From IMG/VR virus record IMGVR_UViG_3300045988_158607: a DNA stretch of 58,283 nt; one strand, 5' to 3'. Positions 4,075 through 30,851 of the stretch are shown one piece after another. This DNA is from a virus. How positions within the stretch are numbered: the stretch's first letter is position 1; each line of letters begins with the position of its first letter. The notes beneath the pieces are model-generated. The model was not told the origin of the DNA and ran no database searches. It was given only the letters and a program-made list of their open reading frames with translations. The position numbers and the translations under genes were made by a program.

Positions 4075-4118
4075 TTTATAGACAATTTTTAGAGTTTTTA
4101 ATTTTTTTTGATTCTTGC

Positions 4119-4148
4119 TTAACAAAATGGGCTGAACTCGTGTATAAT
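4119..4148 (+). promoter_or_regulatory. Class II promoter: TTAACA-18 nt-(GTG)TATAAT
   Basis: ttaaca 4119-4124, cgtgtataat ending at 4148. Same architecture at 5 other sites. Confidence 0.65.
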
Positions 4149-4238
4149 CTAGTATCTTGATTCTCGCAGCCAGATATAAGAGACATAACTGAACTCTTCA
4201 GGTTTAAAGATTTATCTAAATGAATAAAGGAGAAAAAG

Positions 4239-4883
4239 TTGAATAATTTAGCTGACCGAATATGGAAGAAAAAGTTGAATGAGCTTTTCGAAAAAAGTGG
4301 TCTTCCTAAAAAATACTTCGAGCCTCAAATATTAGTTGAGCGAGAAGCTGACCGAGAATGTTGGGAATGGCTTGAAGATGTTCGAGCCAATATAGTTGAA
4401 GAAGTTCGAAATGGCTTGAGTATTGTCATTGCTTCAACTACCGTGGGGAATGGAAAAACGAGTTGGGCAGTTAGGCTGCTTCAACGTTATTTAGCAGAGA
4501 CGGCACTTGATGGCAGAATTGTTGAAAAGGGAATGTTTGTAGTCTCAGCTCAACTGTTGACTGAGTTTGGAGATTATAATTATTTTCAAACAATGCAAGA
4601 ATTTCTTGAACGTTTCGAGCGTCTCAAAACTTGCGAAATTTTAGTTATAGATGAAATAGGAGGAGGCTCCTTAACAAAGGCTTCATATCCCTATCTATAT
4701 GACCTAGTTAATTATCGGGTCGATAATAATTTGTCGACTATATATACGACCAATTATACGGACGATGAAATTATTGAACTACTAGGGCAAAGACTATATA
4801 GTAGAATTTATGATACTTCAGTAGTGCTAGATTTCGAAGCTAGCAACGTAAGAGGATTGGAGGCGAGTGAAATTGAATCATAG
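4239..4883 (+). CDS. DnaC/IstB-like AAA+ helicase loader
   Basis: Walker A STTVGNGKTSWA, Walker B ILVIDEIG. TTG start after an AAGGAG RBS. Lies upstream of the DnaB-like helicase. Confidence 0.75.
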   Translation: MNNLADRIWKKKLNELFEKSGLPKKYFEPQILVEREADRECWEWLEDVRANIVEEVRNGLSIVIASTTVGNGKTSWAVRLLQRYLAETALDGRIVEKGMFVVSAQLLTEFGDYNYFQTMQEFLERFERLKTCEILVIDEIGGGSLTKASYPYLYDLVNYRVDNNLSTIYTTNYTDDEIIELLGQRLYSRIYDTSVVLDFEASNVRGLEASEIES

Positions 4884-5148
4884 ATATAGTGGAGTTACGA
4901 ATGTTCTTCTTTGGTGCGTTCTTTTTCTATGTATTTGCTGCATGGGCGCATATTGTGTAGGACGACATGACGAACGCAAAGAACAAAATGAGATAATTGA
5001 AAGTTATAAGCAGAAGCAGAAATCTGCAATTTATCTAACTGTTGACAGTTCAGGCGCTTGGCTAGGCAGCGCACCTGGAGTCAAAGAGAGCCCTCTTTAC
5101 AATGAAAAAGGGCAGCATGTTGGGAAGTTGAAAGAGGTGAGCGAGTGA
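4867..5148 (+). CDS. Small membrane protein (one N-terminal TM segment)
   Basis: GTG start. Hydrophobic segment VLLWCVLFLCICCMGAYCV. Wedged between the loader and the helicase. Confidence 0.5.
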   Translation: MKLNHRYSGVTNVLLWCVLFLCICCMGAYCVGRHDERKEQNEIIESYKQKQKSAIYLTVDSSGAWLGSAPGVKESPLYNEKGQHVGKLKEVSE

Positions 5149-9007: not shown

Positions 9008-9030
9008 GAGGGCGAAAGCCCTCTTTTATT
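9008..9030 (+). terminator. Rho-independent terminator or attenuator
   Basis: gagggc-gaaa-gccctc followed by ttttatt. Confidence 0.7.
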
Positions 9031-9055: not shown

Positions 9056-11395
9056 ATGTCTCAAAAAGGACTTTTTGGCGCAAAGCCTCGTTCAAGTAAA
9101 AAGAATGACGCTCAATTATTAGCCCAAAGAAAAAATAGGAAGCCCGCAGTCGAAGTTACTTACATTTCAGGAAATGCTTTAAAAGACGCAGTTGCTAGAG
9201 CTCGTACACTTTCAAATAGAATTCTTGGACATGTTCTTCACAGGCTTGGATTGATTACAGATGAAGCACAGCTTGAGCAGTATGTTGAAAACATGATTGA
9301 GGACGGCATAGGAGCTATTGACGTTGAGACTGACGGACTTGACACTATACATGACGAACTTGCTGGAATATGTTTTTATTCGCCTAGCCAGAAGGGAATC
9401 TATTCTCCCGTCAATCATGTCAGTAACATGACCAAGATGCGACTTAAAAATCAAATCTCTCCTGCGTTTATGACCAAGATGTTGCAACGAATTGTAGATT
9501 CAGGAATTCCCATTGTTTACCACAATTCGAAGTTCGACTTGAAGTCAATGTTTTGGCGACTTGGAGTTGAAATGAATGAGCCGAAGTGGGACACCTATTT
9601 AGCAGCAATGCTTCTAAATGAAAACGAGTCTCACAGCTTGAAAAATCTTCATTCAAAATATGTTCGAAATGAGGAAAATGCAGAGGTTGCAAAATTCAAT
9701 GACCTCTTTAAAGGAATTCCTTTCAGTTTAATTCCTCCCGATGTTGCATATATGTATGCAGCATATGACCCTTTGCAGACTTTCGAACTCTACCAATTTC
9801 AAGAAAAATATCTAACACCTGGAACAGCGCAATGTGAAGAGTATAATTTAGAGAGAGTTTCTTGGGTTCTTCATAATATCGAAATGCCTTTAATCAAAGT
9901 CCTTTTCGATATGGAGGTTTATGGAGTTGACCTAGACGAAGCTAAACTGGAGGAAATTAGAGAGAAGTTTACTAATAGCATGAATGAAGCAGAAGCTGAA
10001 TTTCAACAGCTTGTTAGTGAATGGCAGCCAGAAATTGAAGAACTTCGACAAACTAACTTCCAAAATTATCAAAAACTTGAAATGGACGCAAGAGGTCGAG
10101 TAACTGTAAGCATTTCAAGTCCCACTCAATTAGCAATTCTATTTTACGACATTATGGGACTGAAAAGTCCTGAAAAGGATAAGCCTAGAGGGACAGGTGA
10201 AAGCATAATTGAGCACTTTGACAACGACATTTCAAAAGCGCTCCTAAAATATAGAAAATATGCAAAATTAGTTTCAACCTATACTACACTCGACCAGCAC
10301 CTTGCAAAACCTGATAATCGCATTCATACCACGTTCAAACAGTACGGAGCCAAGACCGGACGTATGTCAAGTGAGGGACCGAACTTGCAAAATATTCCAT
10401 CAAAAGGCAAGGGCGCAGTTGTTCGACAAATCTTTGCAGCAAGTCCTGGTTACTATATCATTGGTAGTGACTACTCTCAACAAGAGCCTCGCTCTTTGGC
10501 TGAGCTAAGTGGTGATGAAAGTATGCGTCACGCTTATGAGCAAAATCTTGACCTATATTCAGTTATCGGCTCGAAGCTGTATGGAGTTCCTTATGAAGAA
10601 TGTCTTGAGTTCTATCCTGATGGTACGACTAACAAGGAAGGGAAAACTCGAAGAAATTCGGTCAAGTCCGTTCTTTTAGGTCTTATGTATGGGCGAGGAG
10701 CTAACTCAATAGCTGAGCAAATGAATGTGTCAGTCAAAGAGGCGAACAAGGTTATTGAAGACTTTTTCAGCGAGTTTCCTAAGGTAGCAGACTATATCAT
10801 TTTCGTACAGCAGCAGGCTCAGGACTTGGGATATGTGCAAACTGCAACAGGGCGCAGAAGACGTCTACCTGATATGAGCTTACCTGAATATGAATTTGAA
10901 TACGTTGACGCCAGCAAAAACGAAGAGTTCGACCCTTTCAATTTTAGCGACGACCAGCAAATGAGTAACAGCGTTCCTGAATATATTATCGAAGAATATT
11001 GGGCTCAACTTGACCGAGCTTGGGGATTTAAGAAGAAGCAAGACATTAAAGACCGAGCCAAGCAAGAGGGAATACTTATTCGAGACAATGGAGGAAAGAT
11101 TGCAGATGCTCAGCGTCAATGTTTGAACTCAGTCATTCAAGGCACGGCAGCTGATATGACTAAGTATGCGATGATTAAAGTTCATCGAGATAAAGAGCTG
11201 AACGAACTTGGCTTCCATTTAATGATTCCAGTTCATGATGAGCTTCTTGGTGAGGTTCCTAAAGAGAACGCTAAAAGAGGGGCGCAACGATTGACCGAGG
11301 TCATGATTGAGGCAGCAAGGGATATTATTAGTTTACCAATGAAGTGTGACCCGAGCATTGTTGAACGTTGGTACGGAGAGGAGATTGAAATTTAA
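9056..11395 (+). CDS. Family A DNA polymerase (3'-5' exonuclease + polymerase domains)
   Basis: Exo I IDVETDGL. Pol motif A DYSQQEPR, motif B RRNSVKSVLLGLMYGRG, motif C VHDELL. The N-terminus carries QKGLF. Confidence 0.95.
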   Translation: MSQKGLFGAKPRSSKKNDAQLLAQRKNRKPAVEVTYISGNALKDAVARARTLSNRILGHVLHRLGLITDEAQLEQYVENMIEDGIGAIDVETDGLDTIHDELAGICFYSPSQKGIYSPVNHVSNMTKMRLKNQISPAFMTKMLQRIVDSGIPIVYHNSKFDLKSMFWRLGVEMNEPKWDTYLAAMLLNENESHSLKNLHSKYVRNEENAEVAKFNDLFKGIPFSLIPPDVAYMYAAYDPLQTFELYQFQEKYLTPGTAQCEEYNLERVSWVLHNIEMPLIKVLFDMEVYGVDLDEAKLEEIREKFTNSMNEAEAEFQQLVSEWQPEIEELRQTNFQNYQKLEMDARGRVTVSISSPTQLAILFYDIMGLKSPEKDKPRGTGESIIEHFDNDISKALLKYRKYAKLVSTYTTLDQHLAKPDNRIHTTFKQYGAKTGRMSSEGPNLQNIPSKGKGAVVRQIFAASPGYYIIGSDYSQQEPRSLAELSGDESMRHAYEQNLDLYSVIGSKLYGVPYEECLEFYPDGTTNKEGKTRRNSVKSVLLGLMYGRGANSIAEQMNVSVKEANKVIEDFFSEFPKVADYIIFVQQQAQDLGYVQTATGRRRRLPDMSLPEYEFEYVDASKNEEFDPFNFSDDQQMSNSVPEYIIEEYWAQLDRAWGFKKKQDIKDRAKQEGILIRDNGGKIADAQRQCLNSVIQGTAADMTKYAMIKVHRDKELNELGFHLMIPVHDELLGEVPKENAKRGAQRLTEVMIEAARDIISLPMKCDPSIVERWYGEEIEI

Positions 11396-12354
11396 TGCAG
11401 AAATCACTATTTTTAAAGAAGCCTGAATTGAAGGTCTGGGCTGGAAGGTCGTTTAGAAAGGTCACGATTGATGACTATGGAATTTTTCGAAAGTTTGCAA
11501 AGCTTCGAAAAAAGGTTTCATATTATGGCTCAGCTTCACACTTCATGCACTATTGGAATACAGGGAATTATCAACTATTCATCAACGTCGATTTTGAAGA
11601 AACAGGTGAGCTGATTCCCATTGCTAAGAAGTTCTCAAACGCTGTTCAGTTTCATATAGTTGACCCAATTTGTGAAAACTTCGAAACTATTATAGCCCTT
11701 TGCGAAAGTCTCAAAAAAGAGGCTGTGAAAGGGGTATTTGTTAGATACATATATGAGGAACAGATTGAACCTTATGAAAATTGCGAAGTATTTGAGAAGT
11801 ACGGGACAGTTGAAAAGGAATTCATTTATGACTTGAATGAGCAATCAAACCTGCCTGGCAAGAAATTCGCATCGTATCGAAAAAAGATAAATCAGTTCGA
11901 GCGGACAAATAATCTTGAAATAAGATTTTTGACAAAAGACGATGTTGAAGCAAATGAAAAATTCCTTGATGAATGGATTGAGGGAGTAGGACCAGACTAC
12001 TTTAGACCGTCAGTTGGAAAAGACCGACGATTGATTAGAATGTTCGCTCAGGGCGATGAGTGGGATTTCACAATCGGTGCATTTGATGGCGAGCGCCTCG
12101 TCGGTGTCGTCAGCTCGTCAATTGACCCTGATACTGGCACAATGTGTGGAATTTATTCGAAGTGTCTTCGAGGTTATGGAAATCTTTCACAATATCTTGA
12201 AAGACTTTCGAGCCAAGAGGGTCTAAAACGAGGAGCCGTCGTTGAGAATTATAGTAGTGCCTCAGGCTCAAGCGCTGGAATACGAAATCACAAATTGATG
12301 AGAAAGCCTTGTGACTTTTGGAATTTCCATTCTTTCAAATATGTAGGAGAATAG
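11395..12354 (+). CDS. DUF2156 / LPG-synthase-C-like tandem-GNAT-fold protein, paralog A
   Basis: EFIYDLNEQSNLPGKKFASYRKKINQF and the C-terminal G..AGIRNHKLMRKP match my recollection of the DUF2156 pattern (D-Y-x-Y..L..L.GKK....R..xN.F ... GL..fK....P). N-terminus is MQKSLF. Confidence 0.55.
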   Translation: MQKSLFLKKPELKVWAGRSFRKVTIDDYGIFRKFAKLRKKVSYYGSASHFMHYWNTGNYQLFINVDFEETGELIPIAKKFSNAVQFHIVDPICENFETIIALCESLKKEAVKGVFVRYIYEEQIEPYENCEVFEKYGTVEKEFIYDLNEQSNLPGKKFASYRKKINQFERTNNLEIRFLTKDDVEANEKFLDEWIEGVGPDYFRPSVGKDRRLIRMFAQGDEWDFTIGAFDGERLVGVVSSSIDPDTGTMCGIYSKCLRGYGNLSQYLERLSSQEGLKRGAVVENYSSASGSSAGIRNHKLMRKPCDFWNFHSFKYVGE

Positions 12355-12356
12355 GC

Positions 12357-13322
12357 ATGCAGAAATCGTTATTTAAGAATAAAGCTGAAACTCTTTCAGC
12401 TGGAAAAAGAACTTTTAGAGCCGTTACATTTGATGACCTTTCAATTTTTCAAGAGTTCAATCTTCAACGGGAGCGGATTGTTCAATTCGTATCTTCAAAC
12501 TATATGCTCCATTATTGGAATTGTGGAAATTATAGACTATTTATCAATGAGGATTGGGAAGCGACAGGCGAGCTGATTCCAATAGCTCGAAAATATAAAA
12601 ACGTCCCTCAATACTTCATTGTCGCGCCTATTGTTGAAGACTCTGCAACCCTTTCATTGATTTGTAAAGACCTTGAAAAATTGACAGCTAAAAGCGTTAG
12701 AATTAGATATATGATTCCAGAAGAAGCCGAGCTCGTTAATTTTGGAGACTTTTCAATTAGACGGCAGGGAGATAAGGAATATATCAATAACCTTGAAGAA
12801 CAGGTCCAGTTGAATGGAAGCAAATTTAAACGACTCCGTCAGGCTATTAGGCACGGTCAAAGACAGAATCCTAATATTGTTTTCAAGATAATGGAGCCTA
12901 GCGACACTGAAAGAGTTGAAAAATTTCTTAAAACTTGGCTCAATGTAAGAGGAAAAGATTATTTTAGACCTTCAATTGGAAATGATATCAACCAGATTAA
13001 CCTATTTAATCGTGACATGGGGCATACATTCTGTCTTCTAGCCCTTGATGGTGAAGATGTTGCGAGCGTGTATATGGAAGCCGGAGAGCCTGGAACTGAG
13101 TACTCATGTTGCACACTTGCAAAAACACTTCCTCAATATACTGACCTGAGCTATTGGACATTTTTAGAAGCTAAGAAAGAGGCTCTTTCAAGAGGCTTCA
13201 AAATCGAAAACATTGGAATGAGTTCGAGCCCTGGAGGAAAAGCATATAAGATGAGATGGAATCCATTTGATACTTATAGATTTTATGAGGCAATATATTT
13301 AGGAGAGAATAATGAAAATTAA
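12357..13322 (+). CDS. DUF2156 / LPG-synthase-C-like tandem-GNAT-fold protein, paralog B
   Basis: Clear paralog of 11395-12354: HYWN.GNY.LFIN, TGELIPIA.K and DYFRPS.G.D are shared. I chose the ATG at 12357 after a GGAGA RBS. N-terminus is MQKSLF. Confidence 0.55.
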   Translation: MQKSLFKNKAETLSAGKRTFRAVTFDDLSIFQEFNLQRERIVQFVSSNYMLHYWNCGNYRLFINEDWEATGELIPIARKYKNVPQYFIVAPIVEDSATLSLICKDLEKLTAKSVRIRYMIPEEAELVNFGDFSIRRQGDKEYINNLEEQVQLNGSKFKRLRQAIRHGQRQNPNIVFKIMEPSDTERVEKFLKTWLNVRGKDYFRPSIGNDINQINLFNRDMGHTFCLLALDGEDVASVYMEAGEPGTEYSCCTLAKTLPQYTDLSYWTFLEAKKEALSRGFKIENIGMSSSPGGKAYKMRWNPFDTYRFYEAIYLGENNEN

Positions 13323-13833
13323 ATTATACTCAATTTCATATATAGCATTAGTGGTTATTGCCAACCTTGTCACCATTTATTTCGAGCCATTAAATGTAGC
13401 AGGAATTCTAATCCCTCCAAGCAGTTGGTTTATGGGATTTACATTCCTTCTTATCAATCTAATTAGCAGGTACGAGAAGCCCAAATTTGCAGGCTCTTTG
13501 ATATGGGTGGGCTTATTCCTTACCTCTTTGATTTGCCTTATGCAGAACTTACCTCAATCGCTTGTCGTGGCTTCTGGGGTCGCATTTTGGATAAGCCAAA
13601 AGATAAGCGTTCTTCTATTTAATAAGTTGTCGAATTATTATCAGGCAGCTTGGGTCAATTCCTGCTCAAGTTTTGTCGGCTCAGTTATAGATGCAACTAT
13701 TTGGATTGCACTTGGGTTGAGCCCTTTGGGAATTGGAACAGTTGCTTATATCGATATTCCTTCAGCTGTATTGGGACAGGTTGCTGTTCAATTCATATTG
13801 CAGTCAATTGCTTCGAAATACTTGAAAAAATAG
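13312..13833 (+). CDS. YhhQ/DUF165 (VUT-family)-like membrane protein; putative 7-deazaguanine precursor transporter
   Basis: Multi-TM protein. ALVVIANLV...P...G and SQKISVLLFNKL...W..S...GSVIDATIW parallel the E. coli YhhQ pattern (Q..D..vFn.L...W...S..g..Dt..F). Confidence 0.55.
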   Translation: MKIKLYSISYIALVVIANLVTIYFEPLNVAGILIPPSSWFMGFTFLLINLISRYEKPKFAGSLIWVGLFLTSLICLMQNLPQSLVVASGVAFWISQKISVLLFNKLSNYYQAAWVNSCSSFVGSVIDATIWIALGLSPLGIGTVAYIDIPSAVLGQVAVQFILQSIASKYLKK

Positions 13834-13860
13834 TCGGGAACTTCCTGATTATTTTTTTTT
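13834..13860 (+). terminator. Weak rho-independent terminator preceding early promoter 2
   Basis: tcggga-act-tcctga (one G.U pair) followed by ttattttttttt. Confidence 0.45.
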
Positions 13861-13891
13861 CAAAAAAGTTGAAAATTTTTGTAAAAAGTGC

Positions 13892-13920
13892 TTGACTATA
13901 TTCGTTCATTATCGTATAAT
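13892..13920 (+). promoter_or_regulatory. Class I (early) promoter copy 2: TTGACT-17 nt-TATAAT
   Basis: ttgact 13892-13897, tataat 13915-13920. Conserved cassette flanks are present. Confidence 0.8.
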
Positions 13921-13950
13921 GTATTTATAAATAATAAAGGAGAACATGAA

Positions 13951-14166
13951 ATGAACACAAGACTTATCGCACTAAAAAGAATGGCAGATAACAAAGGACT
14001 TGAAATTTGCTTAAAAAGCCCAGAGGGGGAACAACTTGCAGTTCCAGTTGAACAAGCAATGAAATATGTAGCAATTAGAACATTTAAAATTCTGGCTGAT
14101 AAGGTAGAAGCGACAACGGTTCTAAAAAAGGATGAATATCTTTTCCATTTTGGCAATCTTGTTTAG
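13951..14166 (+). CDS. Small hypothetical early protein (71 aa)
   Basis: ATG at 13951 after an AAAGGAG RBS. The longer track ORF from 13888 would translate the promoter itself. Confidence 0.6.
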   Translation: MNTRLIALKRMADNKGLEICLKSPEGEQLAVPVEQAMKYVAIRTFKILADKVEATTVLKKDEYLFHFGNLV

Positions 14167-14180
14167 ACTGTTTTAATTGC

Positions 14181-14210
14181 TTAACAAAATAACTGACATT
14201 CGTGTATAAT
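14181..14210 (+). promoter_or_regulatory. Class II promoter: TTAACA-18 nt-(GTG)TATAAT, upstream of the que operon
   Basis: ttaaca 14181-14186, cgtgtataat 14201-14210. Confidence 0.65.
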
Positions 14211-14272
14211 ATATATGAGGCAGTTTTGTAGAACCTGACATCCTGCTAAATAAAAATAAAGGAGGCTCGAAC

Positions 14273-14794
14273 ATGAGTCAAAACACTACTCGAACAGACG
14301 CTGAATTGACAGGCGTCACACTTTTAGGAAACCAAGATACGAAATATGATTATGATTATAATCCCGAAGTTCTTGAAACTTTCCCTAACAAGCATCCTGA
14401 AAATAATTATCTTGTAACATTTGACGGATACGAATTCACTTCACTTTGCCCTAAAACTGGACAGCCTGATTTTGCAAATGTTTTCATCAGCTACATTCCA
14501 AATGACAAGATGGTTGAATCGAAATCATTGAAATTGTACTTATTCAGTTTCCGTAACCACGGTGATTTCCACGAAGATTGCATGAACATTATTTTGAATG
14601 ATTTGTATGAATTGATGCAGCCTAAGTATATTGAAGTGATGGGACTATTCACTCCACGTGGAGGAATTTCAATCTATCCTTTTGTAAACAAGGTCAATCC
14701 TGACTTCTCAAATCCTGAACTTGAACAGCTTTCACTTCAACGAAAAATGAACTTTTTAGGCAGCGTTCACACTTTGGGAAGAGCTATTCGATAG
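14273..14794 (+). CDS. queF: NADPH-dependent 7-cyano-7-deazaguanine (preQ0) reductase QueF, unimodular type
   Basis: Catalytic-Cys context [13 protein letters not shown] and the QueF motif [16 protein letters not shown]. Confidence 0.85.
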
Positions 14795-14803
14795 GAGGTT
14801 GAA

Positions 14804-15490
14804 ATGAAATCAGTCGTTTTATTGTCAGGCGGAGTTGACTCTGCTACCTGCTTAGCAATCGAAGTTGATAAATGGGGAGCTAAAAATGTTCACGCAATTG
14901 CATTCAACTATGGGCAAAAGCATGAAGCTGAACTTGAAAATGCTGCTAATGTTGCAATGTTTTATGGAGTGAAATTTTCAGTTCTTGAAATTGACTCGAA
15001 AATTTACTCAAGCTCTAACTCTTCTCTTCTAAAGGGAAAAGGTGAAATTTCGCACGGCAAAACCTATGCAGAAATTTTAGAAGAAAAAGAAGTTGTCGAC
15101 ACCTATGTCCCATTTAGAAATGGATTAATGCTTTCACAGGCTGCTGCTTACGCTTACTCAGTGGGAGCTGATATCGTAGTATATGGAGCCCACGCAGACG
15201 ATGCAGCAGGGGACGCATACCCCGATTGCACTCCAGCTTTCTATCATTTTATGGATAAGGCAATTTACTTTGGAACTGGTCAAAAAGTTCATCTTCAAGC
15301 TCCATTGCTTACCTTGTCGAAATCGCAGGTTGTGAAATGGGGACTTGAGCTTGACGTTCCTTACTTCCTAACTCGTTCATGTTACGAAAGTTCAAATGAA
15401 AGTTGTGGAACTTGCGCAACTTGTATTGACCGCAAAAAGGCATTCACTGAAAATGGGATGACCGACCCTATACATTACAAGGAGAACTGA
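14804..15490 (+). CDS. queC: 7-cyano-7-deazaguanine synthase QueC
   Basis: PP-loop LLSGGVDS. C-terminal Zn cluster CYESSNESCGTCATC. Confidence 0.9.
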   Translation: MKSVVLLSGGVDSATCLAIEVDKWGAKNVHAIAFNYGQKHEAELENAANVAMFYGVKFSVLEIDSKIYSSSNSSLLKGKGEISHGKTYAEILEEKEVVDTYVPFRNGLMLSQAAAYAYSVGADIVVYGAHADDAAGDAYPDCTPAFYHFMDKAIYFGTGQKVHLQAPLLTLSKSQVVKWGLELDVPYFLTRSCYESSNESCGTCATCIDRKKAFTENGMTDPIHYKEN

Positions 15491-15491
15491 T

Positions 15492-16007
15492 ATGAAAGTT
15501 TCGAAAACATTAACATTCGACGCAGCTCATCAATTAGTTGGGCATTTTGGGAAATGTGCAAATTTGCATGGACATACTTACAAGGTCGAAATTTCACTAG
15601 CTGGAGAAACGGTTCAACACGGTTCTAGCAAAGGCATGGTCGTTGACTTCTATCATGTTAAGAAGATAGCTGGAAAATTTGTCGACAGGCTTGACCATGC
15701 TGTCCTACTTCAAGGCAACGAGCCTATCTTCCTGAAAGATGCAGTTGATACGAAGCGTGTCATCTTTGGTTTTAGAACCACGGCAGAGAATATGTCAAGA
15801 TTTCTTACTTGGACACTTACTGAGCTCATGTGGCAATACGCTCGTATCGATTCAATTAAACTTTGGGAAACTCCTTCAGGTTGTGCAGAATGTTCGTATT
15901 ATGAAGTTTTCACAGATGAGGAAGTTGAAGTGTTCAAGAACGTGAAATTTATAGAAGGCGACAGCGAGGTTACTGTTCGAGACCTTTTGGGAGGAGAGCA
16001 TGGTTAA
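15492..16007 (+). CDS. queD: 6-carboxy-5,6,7,8-tetrahydropterin synthase QueD
   Basis: FDAAHQL...C.NLHGHTY zinc/His motif typical of PTPS/QueD. Confidence 0.85.
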   Translation: MKVSKTLTFDAAHQLVGHFGKCANLHGHTYKVEISLAGETVQHGSSKGMVVDFYHVKKIAGKFVDRLDHAVLLQGNEPIFLKDAVDTKRVIFGFRTTAENMSRFLTWTLTELMWQYARIDSIKLWETPSGCAECSYYEVFTDEEVEVFKNVKFIEGDSEVTVRDLLGGEHG

Positions 16008-16794
16008 TCAGTACAATCAGCCTGAGAGGGGAAAAATTCGAATAAATGTTCGTGACCCTGAAAAAATGCCCATCATGGAAATCTTCGGTCCTACAATTCA
16101 GGGCGAAGGAATGGTTATTGGTCAAAAAACCATCTTTATTAGAACAGGTGGATGCGACTATCATTGTAACTGGTGCGACTCTGCATTCACTTGGAATGGA
16201 ACTACTGAGCCTGAATACATTACAGGTGAAGAAGCTGCTAGCCGAATTTTGAAACTAGCTTTCAATAAAAACGGCGAACAGATTTGCAACCATGTTACCC
16301 TGACAGGAGGAAATCCTGCCTTAATAAATGAGCCTATGAGCAAAATGATTTCAATTTTGAAAGAAAGGGGATTTAAGTTCGGGCTTGAGACTCAAGGAAC
16401 TAGATTTCAAGAATGGTTCAAGAATGTCAGCGACATCACTATTAGTCCAAAACCTCCTTCAAGTGGAATGCGAACTAATATGAAAATTCTTGAAGCGATT
16501 GTAGATAGGCTGAACAGTGAGAACCTTGACTGGTCATTCAAGATTGTTATTTTCGACGAGAATGACCTAGCTTACGCTCGAGATATGTTCAAGACCTTTG
16601 AAGATAAGTTGCCTGAGGTTAATTATCTTTCTGTCGGGAATGCTAACGCTTACGAAGAAGGGAAGATAAGTGACAGGCTTCTTGAAAAGTTGGGATGGCT
16701 TTGGGATAAAGTGTATGAAGACCCTGCTTTTAACAATGTTCGACCATTGCCTCAGCTTCATACACTTGTTTACGATAATAAAAGAGGAGTATAG
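16000..16794 (+). CDS. queE: 7-carboxy-7-deazaguanine synthase QueE (radical SAM)
   Basis: FGPTIQGEG and the cluster motif GGCDYHCNWCDS. Confidence 0.9.
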   Translation: MVNQYNQPERGKIRINVRDPEKMPIMEIFGPTIQGEGMVIGQKTIFIRTGGCDYHCNWCDSAFTWNGTTEPEYITGEEAASRILKLAFNKNGEQICNHVTLTGGNPALINEPMSKMISILKERGFKFGLETQGTRFQEWFKNVSDITISPKPPSSGMRTNMKILEAIVDRLNSENLDWSFKIVIFDENDLAYARDMFKTFEDKLPEVNYLSVGNANAYEEGKISDRLLEKLGWLWDKVYEDPAFNNVRPLPQLHTLVYDNKRGV

Positions 16795-16795
16795 A

Positions 16796-17428
16796 ATGAA
16801 AATTGAACAACTAGATAAAATTGGTGAACTATTAGGAAGAGAAAATGGCTTTTCTTCCCTCAAGACAACTGAAATTGTCGCACTTGACAACACTGAGTCA
16901 GCTATTCAAATTCTATTTGGATTATTGGGCGAAGACTCTAAACGCGATGGTCTACAAGAGACACCTTTCAGGTTCGTGAAAGCACTGGCTGAGCATACCG
17001 TAGGATATAGAGAAGACCCTAAACTGCACCTAGAAAAGACCTTCGATGTTGACCATGAAGACCTTGTTCTTGTAAAGGACATTCCTTTCAACTCGCTGTG
17101 CGAACACCATCTTGCGCCATTTGTAGGAAAGGTGCATATTGCATATATTCCTAAAGACAAGATTACAGGGCTTTCAAAATTCGGTCGCGTAGTTGAGGGA
17201 TATGCTAAACGACTTCAAGTTCAAGAACGTCTTACTCAACAAATAGCTGACGCCATTCAGGAAGTTCTCAATCCTCAAGCTGTTGCAGTTATTATCGAGG
17301 CTGAGCATACTTGTATGAGCGGACGTGGAATTAAGAAACATGGAGCGACTACGGTAACTTCAACAATGCGAGGTCTTTTCCAAAATGACGCATCAGCTCG
17401 AGCTGAGTTGATGCAGCTTATTAAGTAG
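16796..17428 (+). CDS. folE: GTP cyclohydrolase I (FolE)
   Basis: GLQETPFR, FNSLCEHHLAPF, GLSKFGR.V...A.RLQVQERLT. ATG at 16796 after a GAGGAG RBS. Confidence 0.9.
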   Translation: MKIEQLDKIGELLGRENGFSSLKTTEIVALDNTESAIQILFGLLGEDSKRDGLQETPFRFVKALAEHTVGYREDPKLHLEKTFDVDHEDLVLVKDIPFNSLCEHHLAPFVGKVHIAYIPKDKITGLSKFGRVVEGYAKRLQVQERLTQQIADAIQEVLNPQAVAVIIEAEHTCMSGRGIKKHGATTVTSTMRGLFQNDASARAELMQLIK

Positions 17429-17437
17429 GAGGCGAAG

Positions 17438-17923
17438 ATGAATAAAAGTGCAACTCTCTGGCTTGTTCGAACAGCTCTTATCGCTGCTTTGTATGTGACA
17501 TTAACCATTGCATTTTCTGCAATCAGTTATGGACCTATTCAATTTAGAATTAGTGAGCTTCTAATTCTTTTGCCTTTGTGGAACCATAGATGGACTCCGG
17601 GAATTGTTATGGGGACAATTATTGCAAATCTCTTTTCACCTCTTGGCTTAATTGATGTTCTTTTCGGCTCATTTGCTACATTTCTTGGAATTGTTAGCAT
17701 GACAAGAGTCGCTAAAATGTCAAGCCCAATATACTCACTCTGCTGTCCAGTTCTCGCCAATGCTTATATCATCGCACTTGAACTTCGAATTGTCTATTCA
17801 TTGCCATTTTGGGAATCAGTTATCTATGTAGGAATTAGTGAAGCAATTATCGTTCTAATTGGCTACTTCGCTATCTCAACCATGGCAAAGAACAGCTCAT
17901 TTAGGAAAATGATAGGAGCGTAG
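17438..17923 (+). CDS. queT: QueT-like membrane protein (ECF-type queuosine-precursor S component)
   Basis: Multi-TM 161-aa protein. TALIAALYVTLT...GPIQFRISE resembles the COG4708/QueT family. Lies within the que operon. Confidence 0.65.
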   Translation: MNKSATLWLVRTALIAALYVTLTIAFSAISYGPIQFRISELLILLPLWNHRWTPGIVMGTIIANLFSPLGLIDVLFGSFATFLGIVSMTRVAKMSSPIYSLCCPVLANAYIIALELRIVYSLPFWESVIYVGISEAIIVLIGYFAISTMAKNSSFRKMIGA

Positions 17924-17925
17924 AT

Positions 17926-18858
17926 ATGTCATTCAATATATACTTTGCAGGGAACCATGCAAACGCTACTGATGATTTCTTTATGAAGCGTCAAGCCAAC
18001 CGACTTTTCAATCAGCTGTTTGAGCGAAAGTCGATTGGGGAAAAATATCTTCGCCATAAACTCGAAGTTCCAGATACTAAGGCAAAACTATTTGTCGACT
18101 CAAGTGCCTTCTCTGCCCATACTTTGGGAAGCGAAGTTGACATTGACAGCTATATTGAATATGTCAATGCTAATCAAGGCATGTTCGACTGTATAGCTGA
18201 GCTAGATAAAATTCCAGGTGAGTTTCGAAAGCCCAAGACACGAGAACAGCTTTTAGAAGCACCTGAAATTTCTTGGAACAATTATCTTTATATGCGCGAC
18301 CGAGTTATAGATAATGACAAGTTGCTACCTATTTTCCACATGGGAGAGGATTTCAAATGGCTTGAACTCATGCTCGAAACTACATTTGACGGGAAGCATA
18401 TTCCTTACATTGGAATTTCTCCAGCCAACGATTCTGTTCCTAAGTACAAAGACAGATGGTTCGAACACGTTTTCGACATTATTCGAAAAAGTTCAAATCC
18501 TGATGTTAAGACGCACGCATTTGGAATGACAGCACTTGAACAGCTGGAGCGCCATCCGTTTTATAGCGCAGACTCGACTTCAGTTATTATGACAGGGGCA
18601 ATGGGAAATATCTATTCATCAGCTGGACTAATTGACTTTTCAAGAAAGAGTGGAGGAATTCATAATTTCGAAATGCTTGATAAGTCTGTTCAAAAAGAAA
18701 TTCTTGAAACCATTGAGCGCGCAGACGAGGGCTTTAATGTTGAAAATATGGTTGAGCATCACCAATGGCGAGCCATCTATAATATTCAATTCATTTTAGA
18801 TTGGGCTGAGAACTATGAGTTCAAAGGGATTAAAAATCGTCAACGTCGACTATTTTAG
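17926..18858 (+). CDS. dpdA: DpdA-like (TGT-superfamily) DNA 7-deazaguanine transglycosylase
   Basis: TGT-like motifs FVDSSAFS, HAFGMT and SADSTS. Last gene of the que operon. C-terminus ends ...NRQRRLF. Confidence 0.7.
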   Translation: MSFNIYFAGNHANATDDFFMKRQANRLFNQLFERKSIGEKYLRHKLEVPDTKAKLFVDSSAFSAHTLGSEVDIDSYIEYVNANQGMFDCIAELDKIPGEFRKPKTREQLLEAPEISWNNYLYMRDRVIDNDKLLPIFHMGEDFKWLELMLETTFDGKHIPYIGISPANDSVPKYKDRWFEHVFDIIRKSSNPDVKTHAFGMTALEQLERHPFYSADSTSVIMTGAMGNIYSSAGLIDFSRKSGGIHNFEMLDKSVQKEILETIERADEGFNVENMVEHHQWRAIYNIQFILDWAENYEFKGIKNRQRRLF

Positions 18859-19270: not shown

Positions 19271-20344
19271 ATGAGTATTAAGTTCAAGACAGAAGAACTT
19301 TCAAAAATTGTTTCGCAGCTCAATAAGTTGAAGCCTAGCAAATTGCTAGAAATCACAAATTATTGGCATATCTACGGTGATGGTGAATGTGTTATGTTCA
19401 CAGCCTATGACGGTTCGAATTTTCTTCGATGCGTCATTGAAAGCGATGTTGAAATTGACGTGATTGTCAAGGCAGAGCAGTTTGGAAAACTTGTAGACAA
19501 AACCACTGCAGCGACTATTACATTAGTTCCTGAAGACTCTGCATTGAAAGTTATCGGGAATGGTGAATACAATATCGACATCGTTACTGAAGATGAAGAA
19601 TATCCTACCTTTGACCACCTATTAGAAGATGTCAAAGAAGATGACGCATTGACGTTGAAGAGTTCGCTATTCTACGGGATTGCAAACATCAACGATTCTG
19701 CCGTGTCAAAATCGGGAGCTGATGGCATTTATACAGGGTTCTTGCTAAAAGACGGGAAAGCCATTACAACAGACATCATTCGCGTATGTATCAACCCGAT
19801 TGAAGAAAAAGGTTTGGAAATGCTTATTCCTTACAACCTAATGACCTTGTTAGCTAGCATTCCTGATGAAAAGATGTACTTCTGGGCACTTGACAGCGAT
19901 ACCATTTATATCTCATCTGCAAGTGTTGAAATTTACGGTAAATTGATGGAAGGTCTTGAAGAATATGAAGATGTTTCTCAGCTTGACCAGATTGAATTTG
20001 TCGACAATGCAGCCATCCCGACAGCTCAAATCATGAGCGTATTAGACCGTCTTGTTCTATTCACTTCAGCTTTTGACAAGGGGACTGTCGAATTCATTTT
20101 CTTGAAAGACCGACTTCGAATTAAAACTTCTACAAGCAGTTATGAAGACATCATGTATGCAGCTGCTGGCAAAAAGGTTTCGAAAAAGGAATTCACTTGC
20201 CACCTTAACAGCCTACTCTTGAAGGAAATTGTATCAACTGTCACCGAAGAGAACTTCACTGTTTCTTATGGAAGCGAGAACGCGATTAAGATTTCATCAA
20301 ATGGTGTCATTTACTTCTTAGCACTTCAAGAACCTGAAGCTTAA
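19271..20344 (+). CDS. DnaN-like sliding clamp (DNA polymerase III beta-type)
   Basis: 357 aa. The N-terminal pattern IKFKTEEL..IV..L / F.AYDGSNF / V.A..FGKLV / L.V.G.G.Y.I....EEYPTFD parallels the DnaN domain I layout. Confidence 0.7.
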   Translation: MSIKFKTEELSKIVSQLNKLKPSKLLEITNYWHIYGDGECVMFTAYDGSNFLRCVIESDVEIDVIVKAEQFGKLVDKTTAATITLVPEDSALKVIGNGEYNIDIVTEDEEYPTFDHLLEDVKEDDALTLKSSLFYGIANINDSAVSKSGADGIYTGFLLKDGKAITTDIIRVCINPIEEKGLEMLIPYNLMTLLASIPDEKMYFWALDSDTIYISSASVEIYGKLMEGLEEYEDVSQLDQIEFVDNAAIPTAQIMSVLDRLVLFTSAFDKGTVEFIFLKDRLRIKTSTSSYEDIMYAAAGKKVSKKEFTCHLNSLLLKEIVSTVTEENFTVSYGSENAIKISSNGVIYFLALQEPEA

Positions 20345-22627: not shown

Positions 22628-23787
22628 TGAAATTAGAACAGTTGATGAAGGATTGGAATAAGGACTCGAAAGCCCTTGTAGCAGTTCAAGGTCTTGAACG
22701 TGAAGCGCTTCCAAGAATTCCATTTTCTGCTCCTTCAATGAATTTTCAAACGTATGGCGGACTTCCTCGAAAAAGGGTAGTCGAATTCTTCGGTCCTGAG
22801 TCTAGTGGAAAAACCACTTCAGCTCTCGACATTGTCAAGAATGCTCAAATGGTCTTTGAGCAAGAATGGGAACAGAAGACGACCGAGCTGAAAGAACGTC
22901 TTGAAAATGCGCGTGCTTCTAAAGCCAGCAAGTCTTCTATTAAGGAGCTTGAAATGCAGTTGGACAGTCTTTTAGAGCCCCTTAAAATTGTATATCTCGA
23001 CCTTGAAAATACTTTGGACACTGAATGGGCGAAGAAGATTGGAGTAGATGTTGACAACATTTGGATTGTTCGACCTGAAATGAATAGCGCAGAGGAGATA
23101 CTTCAATACGTTCTAGACATTTTCGAAACAGGCGAAGTCGGGCTAGTAGTTTTAGATTCCTTGCCTTACATGGTCAGCCAAAACCTAATGGACGAAGAAT
23201 TGACTAAAAAGGCTTATGCAGGAATTTCAGCTCCTCTTACAGAATTTAGTCGAAAAGTTACTCCACTTCTTACCAGATACAATGCCATCTTTTTAGGTAT
23301 CAATCAAATTCGAGAAGACATGAATAGTCAGTATAACGCATATTCAACTCCAGGTGGTAAGATGTGGAAGCACGCTTGTGCCGTTCGACTAAAATTCAGG
23401 AAAGGTGACTACCTTGACGAAAATGGCGCAACATTGACACGGTCAGCTCGAAATCCTGCAGGTAACGTTGTCGAGTCTTTTGTAGAGAAGACAAAAGCAT
23501 TCAAGCCTGACAGGAAATTGGTTTCATACACTCTTTCATATCATGAAGGAATTCAAATTGAAGCTGACCTTGTAGATGTTGCAGTTGAATTTGGAGTTAT
23601 CCAAAAAGCAGGAGCTTGGTTCAGTATTGTCGACCTTGATACTGGAGAAATTATGGCTGATGAAGATGATGAGCCATTGAAATTTCAGGGCAAGGCAAAT
23701 CTTGTTAGACGTCTAAAAGATGATGACTATCTATTTGATATGATAATGACTGCGGTGCATTCCATCATCACTCAAGAAGACGGTTAA
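22627..23787 (+). CDS. recA: RecA-like recombinase
   Basis: Walker A FGPESSGKTT, Walker B LVVLDSL, and INQIRE loop region. Confidence 0.85.
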   Translation: MKLEQLMKDWNKDSKALVAVQGLEREALPRIPFSAPSMNFQTYGGLPRKRVVEFFGPESSGKTTSALDIVKNAQMVFEQEWEQKTTELKERLENARASKASKSSIKELEMQLDSLLEPLKIVYLDLENTLDTEWAKKIGVDVDNIWIVRPEMNSAEEILQYVLDIFETGEVGLVVLDSLPYMVSQNLMDEELTKKAYAGISAPLTEFSRKVTPLLTRYNAIFLGINQIREDMNSQYNAYSTPGGKMWKHACAVRLKFRKGDYLDENGATLTRSARNPAGNVVESFVEKTKAFKPDRKLVSYTLSYHEGIQIEADLVDVAVEFGVIQKAGAWFSIVDLDTGEIMADEDDEPLKFQGKANLVRRLKDDDYLFDMIMTAVHSIITQEDG

Positions 23788-24146
23788 TGCAAAAATCTTT
23801 ATTCGGTTCGAAGACAGTTCCCGTCGTTAAGAAAAGAATGGTGAGAACTGTCCCAAAACCTAAAAAACGAATTGATGGACAAGTGGTTGAGCTGATGAAC
23901 CGCAGAGAGCGTCAAGTTCTTGTCCACAGTTGTATCTATTATTATTTTAATGACTCAATTATAGGAGACACGCAGTATGATAAATGGAGCCACGAACTTC
24001 ATTCGCTAATAGTTTCACATCCCGAAGAGTTTCGTGAAACTGTTCTTTTCGAAGAATTTAAACAGTTCGACGGGAATACAGGGATGGGGCTGCCTTATGA
24101 CTGCGCGTTTGCTGTACGAGTTGCAGAAAGGCTTTTGAAAAAATGA
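23787..24146 (+). CDS. Hypothetical 119-aa protein with the N-terminal motif MQKSLFGSK
   Basis: ATG overlaps the recA-like stop (TAATG). Lies directly upstream of the clamp-loader genes. Confidence 0.6.
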   Translation: MQKSLFGSKTVPVVKKRMVRTVPKPKKRIDGQVVELMNRRERQVLVHSCIYYYFNDSIIGDTQYDKWSHELHSLIVSHPEEFRETVLFEEFKQFDGNTGMGLPYDCAFAVRVAERLLKK

Positions 24147-30177: not shown

Positions 30178-30201
30178 AAAGACCTATATTCTAGGTCTTT
30201 T
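30177..30201. terminator. Bidirectional rho-independent terminator between convergent transcription units
   Basis: aaaagaccta-tattc-taggtctttt, with A and T runs on both sides. Confidence 0.8.
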
Positions 30202-30619
30202 AACTTTGCAAAAAATTGAGCTCGTCTTCGTATGCTAAAATCTGTCCATATTGATAGTGAATGGCTGCCTCTATGTCAGGCATTTCATGAACTCCTTTTT
30301 TGAGCTCATCAATAGTACAGTTGCAATGACCAATTCTTGATTGAAGCTCTTGAATTCGGTCTAGTTTCTTTTGTTGAAGTTGGTCTAATCCAATTTCGGC
30401 GACGGGGGTAAATGATTTGGCAATTTCATTAACAGCCTGAAAGAAGTCTGTTACAGAAACTCCTTTATAGGAGAGCTCATTTCTTGTATAGCATGATAAC
30501 ATTGAATTGAATCCGGTCATTTGGATTTGCTGGTTAGTTGAGTTTCGATAAGCTATATAATTCAAAATGTCTTTATAATCAATTTCAGCTTCTGTATGGT
30601 TGTTGATATATATTTTCAT
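30200..30619 (-). CDS. Hypothetical protein (139 aa from MKIYINNH)
   Basis: I chose the ATG at 30619 with a GGAGGG RBS 11 nt upstream. The longer track ORF would overlap the upstream gene. Confidence 0.55.
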   Translation of the reverse strand: MKIYINNHTEAEIDYKDILNYIAYRNSTNQQIQMTGFNSMLSCYTRNELSYKGVSVTDFFQAVNEIAKSFTPVAEIGLDQLQQKKLDRIQELQSRIGHCNCTIDELKKGVHEMPDIEAAIHYQYGQILAYEDELNFLQS

Positions 30620-30623
30620 GAGC

Positions 30624-30851
30624 TTACATTCCCTCCAAATCTGGGTCATCGTCGTCATAATTGTAGCAAGCTATCACTTCAAGCCATTCGTCAATTTCGC
30701 CTTCATTTCGAACCTTTGTAGAAATGACCTGCATATCCGCTACTTCTTCGAAAGCTTCATTGGGAGCAATTCCTTCCCATTCTAAATCGTCGTAGTCGAA
30801 AATAGTTACAAGACGTCCGTCAAATACTACTGTTTCTCTTACTGTTGCCAT
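30624..30851 (-). CDS. Hypothetical acidic protein (75 aa from MATVRE)
   Basis: ATG at 30851 preceded by AAGGGGGA. Confidence 0.55.
   Translation of the reverse strand: MATVRETVVFDGRLVTIFDYDDLEWEGIAPNEAFEEVADMQVISTKVRNEGEIDEWLEVIACYNYDDDDPDLEGM

Follow-up and report, generated by a model that had tools for sequence, protein, structure and literature searches.

The virion DNA of Streptococcus phage Dp-1 contains dPreQ1, a 7-deazaguanine with a primary amine on its 7-aminomethyl group, at about 1.7% of G (PMC6884629). Such bases can be decorated further, as dPreQ1 is methylated by phage DpdM, and DpdN is a predicted formyltransferase for formyl-dPreQ1 in phage DNA (PMC10516641). Here we analyze a 58,283-nucleotide stretch of viral DNA (IMG/VR record IMGVR_UViG_3300045988_158607, referred to throughout as the window), which is the complete or near-complete genome of a Dp-1-like streptococcal siphophage. 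We focus on two adjacent open reading frames (ORFs) on its plus strand, ORF A and ORF B, which encode paralogous DUF2156-type tandem-GNAT proteins within a 7-deazaguanine locus. We consider it likely that the clade to which they belong serves the DpdA 7-deazaguanine system as a functional accessory, and A and B probably add a further, undescribed decoration to 7-deazaguanine in DNA.

The nearest described protein is a stand-alone DUF2156 protein of Bacteroides thetaiotaomicron (2hqy), which has the same length and tandem-GNAT architecture as A and B and was the top match in both profile and structural comparisons. It is, however, a bacterial protein, whereas the phage proteins form a distinct clade with an N-terminal (Q)xxLF peptide that is rare elsewhere in the family. 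The synthase domain of MprF and other aminoacyl-phosphatidylglycerol synthases (4v34-36, 5vrv, 6lv0, 7duw and 9goe) shares with A and B the PF09924 family, the fold and the G-x6-R and GLRxxKxxxxP motifs, and takes its aminoacyl group from aminoacyl-tRNA, as is predicted likewise for the phage pair. MprF has an N-terminal multi-helix flippase, whereas A and B are soluble and phage-encoded beside DNA-modification genes; its acceptor is the glycerol hydroxyl of a lipid, whereas the acceptor that we propose for A and B is an amine on a DNA base. FemX, FemA and FemB, like Sbb17 and Sba18, take an aminoacyl group from tRNA and pass it to a primary amine, and this is the chemistry that we propose here. 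Their fold class is that of A and B (template-modeling (TM) scores of 0.54-0.65), with a similarity that is structural only; they differ in using peptidoglycan precursors or amino sugars as acceptors. Paralogs of the Fem family act one after another, and a comparable FemXAB-like succession of A and B is conjecture by analogy, which we offer as speculation.

A functional precedent is provided by Mom of phage Mu, a phage GNAT enzyme with a charged tRNA as donor and DNA as acceptor. An earlier reading made from the letters of the window alone (the sequence-only reading) had already invoked Mom, and the precedent is now stronger than was stated there, as Mom has been shown to use Gly-tRNAGly on double-stranded DNA (PMC13219725). 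Mom, however, is a single GNAT domain with a helix-turn-helix-like insertion that acts on adenine N6 without prior base exchange, whereas A and B are tandem GNATs linked to DpdA that carry clamp-type motifs, and no sequence relationship between them was detected. DpdM and DpdN, which are encoded beside dpdA and que genes in phages and decorate the aminomethyl group of preQ1 or dPreQ1, occupy the pathway position that we propose for A and B, but their folds, PurN-like in DpdN and a separate one in DpdM, are unrelated to that of A and B, and the groups transferred differ. Both tRNA-dependent DNA modification and the decoration of dPreQ1 are already known as general ideas; the enzyme family of A and B has no assigned role outside lipid aminoacylation.

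Family and Fold of ORF A and ORF B

ORF A (319 residues, 11395..12354, plus strand) and ORF B (321 residues, 12357..13322, plus strand, counted from the ATG of MQKSLF, with a TTG-extended version of the frame starting at 12318) have the positions and lengths given in the sequence-only reading, which had described them as paralogs that both begin with MQKSLF. BLASTP aligns the two with 39% identity over 320 columns (E = 7e-71), the blocks HYWN.GNY.LFIN, TGELIPIA.K and DYFRPS.G.D that had been singled out as shared are all present in the alignment, and both ORFs do start with MQKSLF. In a neighbor-joining tree the A-type and B-type sequences are sister clades within the Dp-1-like group, so that the tandem is a lineage-specific duplication, and some relatives carry an A-type copy only. 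Comparison of B with a 98% identical metagenomic copy (L025) gives 36 synonymous against 5 non-synonymous codon differences, which indicates that B is under purifying selection.

Both proteins pass the gathering cut-off of PF09924 (LPG_synthase_C, formerly DUF2156; 27.5 bits), A with 43.5 bits over residues 74-232 and B with 28.9 bits over residues 136-288. PF09924 is the sole significant match of either protein in the Pfam scan, where FemAB gave no match at E<=1, and neither protein has a family in PHROGs or NCBIfam or a close viral structure in BFVD. A profile built on 45 sequences of the family matches the crystal structure of the DUF2156 protein 2hqy from end to end (E = 1.9e-43), the lysyl-phosphatidylglycerol synthase (LysPGS) 4v36 with E = 2.8e-7 and the MprF/LysPGS synthase chains 6lv0, 7f47, 5vrv and 6lvf with E values of 4e-6 to 1e-4. 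Common to the clade and to 4v36, 6lv0 and 7f47 are a basic-helix motif, L-G-x-K-x-x-x-L-R (G155 and R162 in A), and a C-terminal motif, G-L-R-x-x-K-x-x-x-x-P (R297, K300 and P305 in A). In the synthase domain the C-terminal motif can be written more fully as G-L-R-x-F-K-x-K-x-x-P, and residues K256 and N285 of A, both invariant, are shared as well. Residues R162, K300 and P305 (A numbering) are invariant in 45 of the 45 sequences.

In the AlphaFold models the whole of each protein is made up of two GNAT domains in tandem, with a predicted local distance difference test score (pLDDT) of 76 for A and of 88.9 for B, the latter with a predicted TM score of 0.86. A Foldseek search with model B places exclusively DUF2156 (2hqy), MprF, Sbb17/Sba18 or FemX structures at ranks 1-28 (TM 0.54-0.83), with 2hqy at 0.77-0.83 and Sbb17/Sba18 and FemX at 0.54-0.65, while acetyl-CoA-dependent tandem GNATs (CoA, coenzyme A) rank later with TM scores of about 0.4-0.5. 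Model A retrieves the same families on top (2hqy, FemX, Sbb17 and MprF), and the top structures for the pair are 2hqy, 5vrv, 4v34-36, 6lv0 and 9goe. The DUF2156 kinship and tandem-GNAT fold anticipated by the sequence-only reading are therefore borne out by family and structure searches; its further suggestion, that the pair could decorate preQ1 inserted by DpdA, is clearly strengthened as a prediction by the conserved linkage and the clamp-type motifs described below.

No membrane-like segment was found in A or B (maximum 19-residue Kyte-Doolittle value 1.0-1.2; grand average of hydropathy about -0.5), and because both these segments and the flippase domain are absent, A and B are soluble stand-alone DUF2156 proteins rather than MprF. 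Neither contains the Q/RxxGxG/A motif for CoA. A strongly basic and conserved helix, which reads GKKFASYRKKINQFERTN in A and GSKFKRLRQAIRHGQRQN in B, contributes six or seven basic residues to each protein, and a positively charged helix that binds the tRNA acceptor stem is common to the aminoacyl-tRNA transferases of this fold (PMC6103681). The absence of the CoA motif, the tRNA-dependent structures at the top of the structural comparisons and the basic helix lend indirect support to aminoacyl-tRNA as the putative donor.

Linkage to dpdA, que Genes and yhhQ

The gene order of the window, polA, A, B, yhhQ-like, queF, queC, queD, queE, folE, queT and dpdA, is as the sequence-only reading had it. 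Over the roughly 10-kb stretch around A and B, the que cluster is 81% identical in nucleotide sequence to that of Dp-1, and at the protein level the polymerase, QueF, QueC, QueD, QueE, FolE, QueT and DpdA share 70-96% identity with those of Dp-1. Dp-1 has its polymerase gene (gp71) immediately upstream of gp72, the yhhQ/DUF165 gene, and queF comes next once the genome ends are joined; since nothing lies between gp71 and gp72 there, A and B are an insertion at the pol-yhhQ junction.

Genomic contexts were recovered for 12 lineages with usable flanks (the window, L003/L024, L004, L014, L017, L018, L019-21, L006, L007, L010, L013 and L023, with L012 as the exception), and in 11 of the 12 informative lineages the DUF2156-type gene adjoins dpdA, que genes or yhhQ. 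No que gene is visible in L012, a contig that stops 2 kb downstream. A polA/DnaN (Dp-1-like) supergroup comprises L003/L024, L004, L014, L017, L018 and L019-21. Within it, L003/L024 have pol, one A-type copy, yhhQ and then queF onward, and L004 has pol, one copy and queF to dpdA without yhhQ; in L014 and L017 dpdA lies immediately 3' of the DUF2156 gene. L018 has the DUF2156 gene after queC-queD-queE-folE-queF, with dpdA immediately downstream, so that about 5 kb, including those genes, separate it from pol. In L019-21 (L019, 4997-9287) the order is DUF2156, yhhQ, a 37-residue ORF, a short-chain dehydrogenase (adh_short) and two tandem dpdA paralogs, and no preQ0 synthesis genes, that is, no folE or queCDEF, were found. 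The L019-type phage appears to depend on salvaged 7-deazaguanine precursors, and its dehydrogenase may join in tailoring.

A second, large-phage group is made up of the viral contigs L006 and L023, each of about 180 kb, and of L007, L010 and L013, which are related but shorter. The two contigs of about 180 kb are IMG/VR records IMGVR_UViG_3300037258_000514 and IMGVR_UViG_3300032893_000002. Throughout this group the DUF2156 gene lies 1-3 kb upstream of queC and folE and adjoins no polymerase in any contig. In L006, L007, L010 and L023 dpdA is found further downstream, and the 5.2-kb contig L013 stops within folE; neither queD nor queE was found in the large-phage loci by tblastn or phmmer. The constant partners of the clade are DpdA and either synthesis genes or a precursor transporter, and the association of the DUF2156 gene with dpdA and que genes outlasts changes in gene order and even the loss of the biosynthetic genes.

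Members of the clade are rare and were seen solely in phage-like contigs. Six clusters were recovered from 5.8 billion proteins by a word-indexed search, and of the 367 matches at E<=1e-3 that HMMER gave when run exhaustively against 1.84 billion representatives, only 6 reached E<=1e-30. Pattern scans of 185,579 bacterial and archaeal species-representative genomes, based on the close (A1) and large-phage (A3) alignments, revealed no relative, and 50,697 deposited phage genomes gave no match when A, B and three divergent relatives served as tblastn queries, so there is no cultured phage to point to.

Clamp-binding-type Termini

Bacterial proteins bind the clamp through a motif of the form QL[S/D]LF, which generalizes to QxxLF and in which positions 1, 4 and 5 are critical (PMC12309361), and in Hda such a motif lies at the N terminus on a flexible segment (PMC5397184). 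Residues 2-6 of A (codons 11398..11412, plus strand) and of B (codons 12360..12374, plus strand) read QKSLF and constitute a candidate N-terminal β-clamp-binding motif in each protein. Residues 1-7 of both form a disordered tail in the models (pLDDT below 50), and in a 13-sequence alignment of the clade L5 is invariant and F6 nearly so. When 457 ATG starts with at least 60 codons downstream were scanned for Qxx[LMI]F within the first 12 residues, five carried it. Four of these are real genes, namely those of the family A DNA polymerase (polA, 9056..11395, plus strand, N terminus MSQKGLFGAK), of A and B and of a 119-residue stand-alone ligase Ia-domain protein (23787..24146, plus strand; PF22745 Nlig-Ia, 92.5 bits), which again starts with MQKSLF; the fifth is an internal ATG in queE. 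Because flanks and synonymous sites differ among the four genes, the motif is conserved at the peptide level. The idea that MQKSLF marks a DNA-level duplication or recombination boundary is ruled out by the same differences. The Dp-1 homolog of the ligase Ia-domain protein, gp16, is annotated from an earlier start, and its frame holds the same MQKSLFGPK.

A motif of the same kind is found at the opposite end of the DNA guanine transglycosylase DpdA (17926..18858, plus strand; phrog_887, E = 4.5e-54; 70% identity to Dp-1 gp7), whose C terminus, ...KNRQRRLF-COOH (codons 18841-18855), is the sole Qxx[LMI][FL] ending among 234 frames of at least 60 codons. The C-terminal QxxLF is kept in Dp-1 (QRRLF), L004 (QKRLF), L018 (QARLF) and both L019 paralogs (QKTLF and QRKLF). 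The window encodes its own β sliding clamp, DnaN (19271..20344, plus strand; full-length match to TIGR00663, E = 2.8e-10), an ortholog of Dp-1 gp10; the related loci L001, L004, L014, L018 and L019 likewise have DnaN, and the Dp-1 annotation includes three clamp-loader subunits (gp17-19). These observations suggest that phage DpdA may be recruited to DNA by phage DnaN, and the clamp-motif observation on DpdA appears to be new. DnaN is not mentioned in the Dp-1 phage-host interactome paper, a yeast two-hybrid study.

Across the clade the short form M.{0,4}LF is present in 20 of 21 members as against 7 of 117 other family hits, and the full N-terminal motif, Qxx[LMI][FL], in 9 of 21. From their sequences we infer that the phage clamp binds the polymerase, the ligase Ia-domain protein, DpdA, A and B, and it is as putative clamp clients that A and B are placed on DNA. 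The ligase Ia-domain protein may be a clamp-bound adaptor or regulator of host LigA.

Proposed Function and Alternative Explanations

We tentatively propose, with slightly less than even confidence, that A and B carry out a clamp-tethered, aminoacyl-tRNA-dependent decoration of dPreQ1 in phage DNA. QueF would make preQ1 and so supply the aminomethyl group that is the proposed acceptor, and DpdA would swap guanine for preQ1 on clamp-loaded phage DNA. A and B, docked through their N-terminal QKSLF on the phage's own DnaN, would then take the aminoacyl group of an aminoacyl-tRNA and join it through a stable amide to the primary amine of the 7-aminomethyl group, which would give N-aminoacyl-dPreQ1. 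The two paralogs might make different aminoacyl derivatives or act in sequence to give a dipeptidyl derivative, and the role of the modification would likely be to harden phage DNA against host nucleases. For A and B we infer the donor (aminoacyl-tRNA), the acceptor (dPreQ1 in DNA), the clamp binding and the biological role alike; all characterized relatives of the DUF2156/Fem fold take aminoacyl groups from tRNA, with a hydroxyl or a primary amine as acceptor (PMC6103681). A bolder version, in which A and B would represent a new class of DNA hypermodification, riding the clamp with DpdA and acting sequentially to build an aminoacyl or dipeptidyl chain behind the fork, we regard as unlikely.

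Several observations weigh against the proposal. The PF09924 matches span part of the model only, and that of B exceeds the cut-off by just 1.4 bits. The terminal motif is only five residues long and has shrunk to M-x-L-F in many relatives, and the DpdAs of the large-phage group are without the C-terminal motif. In the large-phage loci and in L019 no queF was detected by tblastn or phmmer, so that a preQ1-amine acceptor would there need host QueF, imported preQ1 or another acceptor altogether. Most Dp-1-like contexts put the gene directly after polA; the Dp-1-like group cannot separate linkage to que genes from linkage to replication genes, and its synteny may simply be inherited. Finally, since Dp-1 replaces just some 1.7% of its G, any further modification could be rare.

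The linkage to que genes, yhhQ and dpdA would fit equally well with a free base as acceptor, in which case preQ1, or a different deazaguanine intermediate, would be aminoacylated by A and/or B in the cytoplasm before DpdA inserted the decorated base. Enzymes of the tRNA-guanine transglycosylase family tolerate bulky substituents on the aminomethyl group of preQ1. The Foldseek matches include Sbb17/Sba18 with streptothrisamine, and all characterized DUF2156/Fem-type enzymes except Mom have small molecules or lipids as substrates (PMC6103681). The N-terminal QxxLF-type peptide, shared with the polymerase and with the C terminus of DpdA, points instead to clamp-loaded DNA and leaves a free-base acceptor distinctly unlikely. 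It is also conceivable that the donor is not a tRNA and that A and B use acetyl-CoA or another acyl-CoA to make N-acyl-dPreQ1, working on dPreQ1 or preQ1. The tandem-GNAT fold does occur in CoA-dependent Foldseek matches (VipF, MAB_4324, glucosamine N-acetyltransferase and CBG), and the authors of the Mom study point out that structure alone cannot reveal the co-substrates of GNATs (PMC13219725). Such a donor nevertheless seems very unlikely, as the CoA-pyrophosphate motif is missing from both proteins, the profile is significant only for DUF2156 and MprF chains and not for CoA-dependent GNATs, the structures on top, with clearly higher TM scores, are aminoacyl-tRNA-dependent, and the basic helix typical of tRNA-dependent transferases is conserved.

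Streptococci have Fem-type enzymes, MurM and MurN, that work on cell-wall precursors, and A and B could in principle be unrelated to DNA modification, aminoacylating a host lipid, a peptidoglycan or teichoic-acid precursor or a protein in the course of envelope remodeling or phage exclusion. All biochemically characterized PF09924 proteins are indeed lipid aminoacyl-transferases (PMC6103681), and the pair is inserted at a spot that is variable relative to Dp-1. A lipid or teichoic-acid target had been named as the alternative in the sequence-only reading; it is weakened by the phage-only distribution of the clade, with no member found in the scanned bacterial genomes, and by the lack of any membrane or flippase domain or hydrophobic segment. 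The clade moreover carries replisome-type terminal motifs, and its linkage to dpdA, que genes or yhhQ is kept across differing gene orders, including a phage without preQ0 synthesis genes, so that we give an envelope or protein target only a slim chance. The same terminal motifs, common to polA and the ligase Ia-domain protein, and the position of the gene directly after polA in most Dp-1-like contexts are what would be expected of clamp-associated replication or repair factors, either catalytic on another base or a fork protein or acting as non-catalytic aminoacyl-tRNA binders, with the nearness of the que genes a matter of module layout. In L018, however, the gene lies away from pol, between queF and dpdA, and in the large phages it lies upstream of queC, folE and dpdA and adjoins no polymerase, while the invariant residues that A and B have in common with active MprF synthase domains argue for catalysis; a replication or repair role is scarcely probable.

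We found no literature linking DpdA or dPreQ1 with aminoacyl-tRNA, DUF2156 or the sliding clamp, and DUF2156, GNAT and aminoacyl enzymes go unmentioned in a survey, published in 2023, of the enzymes that modify dPreQ1 (PMC10516641). If clamp-tethered decoration of dPreQ1 by A and B is correct, an amino acid or short peptide would join the known 7-deazaguanine modifications of DNA, stand-alone DUF2156, a large family, would gain its first non-lipid role, and the use of a charged-tRNA donor for DNA modification would no longer be peculiar to Mu Mom. The bolder, clamp-riding and sequential version would make the product the first amino-acid-bearing 7-deazaguanine in DNA and the second known tRNA-dependent DNA modification, and the enzymes the first DNA-modifying enzymes recruited through clamp-binding motifs. 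Docking on DnaN would offer a testable answer to the question of how the post-replicative DpdA exchange and the enzymes that follow it gain access to DNA (PMC6884629, PMC10516641). Decoration of this kind would also bear on the evasion of restriction and of CRISPR (clustered regularly interspaced short palindromic repeats) defense by phages of oral and pneumococcal streptococci, and A- and B-type enzymes might be usable as tools for the site-selective attachment of amino acids to DNA.

Gene Order and Other Features of the Window and Related Loci

The polymerase gene heads a tightly packed series in which the ATG of A shares bases with the polymerase stop codon (TAATG), 2 nucleotides separate A from B, B has a GGAG ribosome-binding site 8 nucleotides upstream, and the start of the yhhQ-like gene overlaps the 3' end of B by 11 nucleotides. 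A terminator-like hairpin (9008-9023) immediately precedes the polymerase gene, and from that gene onward no strong promoter or terminator signal was found before 13892. Two near-consensus promoters (11 of 12 matches each) lie at 13892 and 14181, and a terminator follows dpdA at 18857. Given the tight packing and the signal-free interior, pol-A-B-yhhQ can be read as one transcription unit, with queF to dpdA as the next.

The yhhQ-like gene (13312..13833, plus strand) encodes a YhhQ/Vut_1-like 7-deazaguanine precursor transporter (phrog_4899, E = 1e-38; TIGR00697, E = 1e-5) that scores 25.3 bits against Vut_1, slightly below the cut-off, and is an ortholog of Dp-1 gp72. QueF, the preQ0 to preQ1 reductase (14273..14794, plus strand), matches PF14489 with 112.9 bits, is 94% identical to Dp-1 gp1 and scores 166.8 bits against TIGR03139 QueF-II (cut-off 86.9), so that by NCBIfam it is a bona fide preQ1 synthase. 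The genes for preQ0 synthesis, queC (14804-15490), queD (15492-16007), queE (16000-16794) and folE (16796-17428), all on the plus strand, are orthologous to Dp-1 gp2-gp5, with 82-96% identity, and are followed by that of the QueT transporter (17438..17923, plus strand; PF06177, 128 bits), which directly precedes dpdA. No tRNA gene was found in the window, and no preQ1 riboswitch upstream of queF reached the Rfam gathering score in a scan of the whole window, where the matches at 13800-14300 were at chance level only. In the yhhQ-queF spacer (13834-14272) the promoters at 13892 and 14181 flank a 71-residue ORF (13951-14166) that is kept with 66% identity in L003/L024 and has no family match. 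Between about 30000 and 34000 both GC skew and AT skew go negative, and an ORF at 30200-30658 lies on the minus strand; this is presumably a divergently transcribed block within an otherwise plus-strand genome.

Further ORFs were noted in the large-phage group. A conserved ORF of 167-218 residues always comes right after queC, in the interval before folE (L006, 12930-13586; L010, 3207-3773; L007, 13118-13696; L013, 4223-4828; L023, 13019-13522); neither Pfam nor PHROGs gave a match for it, and inspection by eye revealed no signature of a radical-SAM or T-fold protein. Closely 3' of the DUF2156 gene are ORFs resembling class-I S-adenosylmethionine (SAM)-dependent methyltransferases (L010, 1350-1940; L007, 7917-8513; L013, 1911-2675), that of L013 with weak Pfam methyltransferase matches and those of L010 and L007 with a DLGxxxGxSA motif discernible by eye, which hints at a further tailoring step. 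In L007 a gene of the adenylosuccinate-synthetase family (PF00709; 11935-13158) lies between queC and folE and recalls PurZ of the 2-aminoadenine phages, so that by analogy this phage may possess a second base modification. The corresponding interval of L023 contains an 881-residue protein with a major-vault-protein shoulder and repeat domains (13532-16177), and an R2K-clade ATP-grasp protein is encoded nearby (4105-4917).

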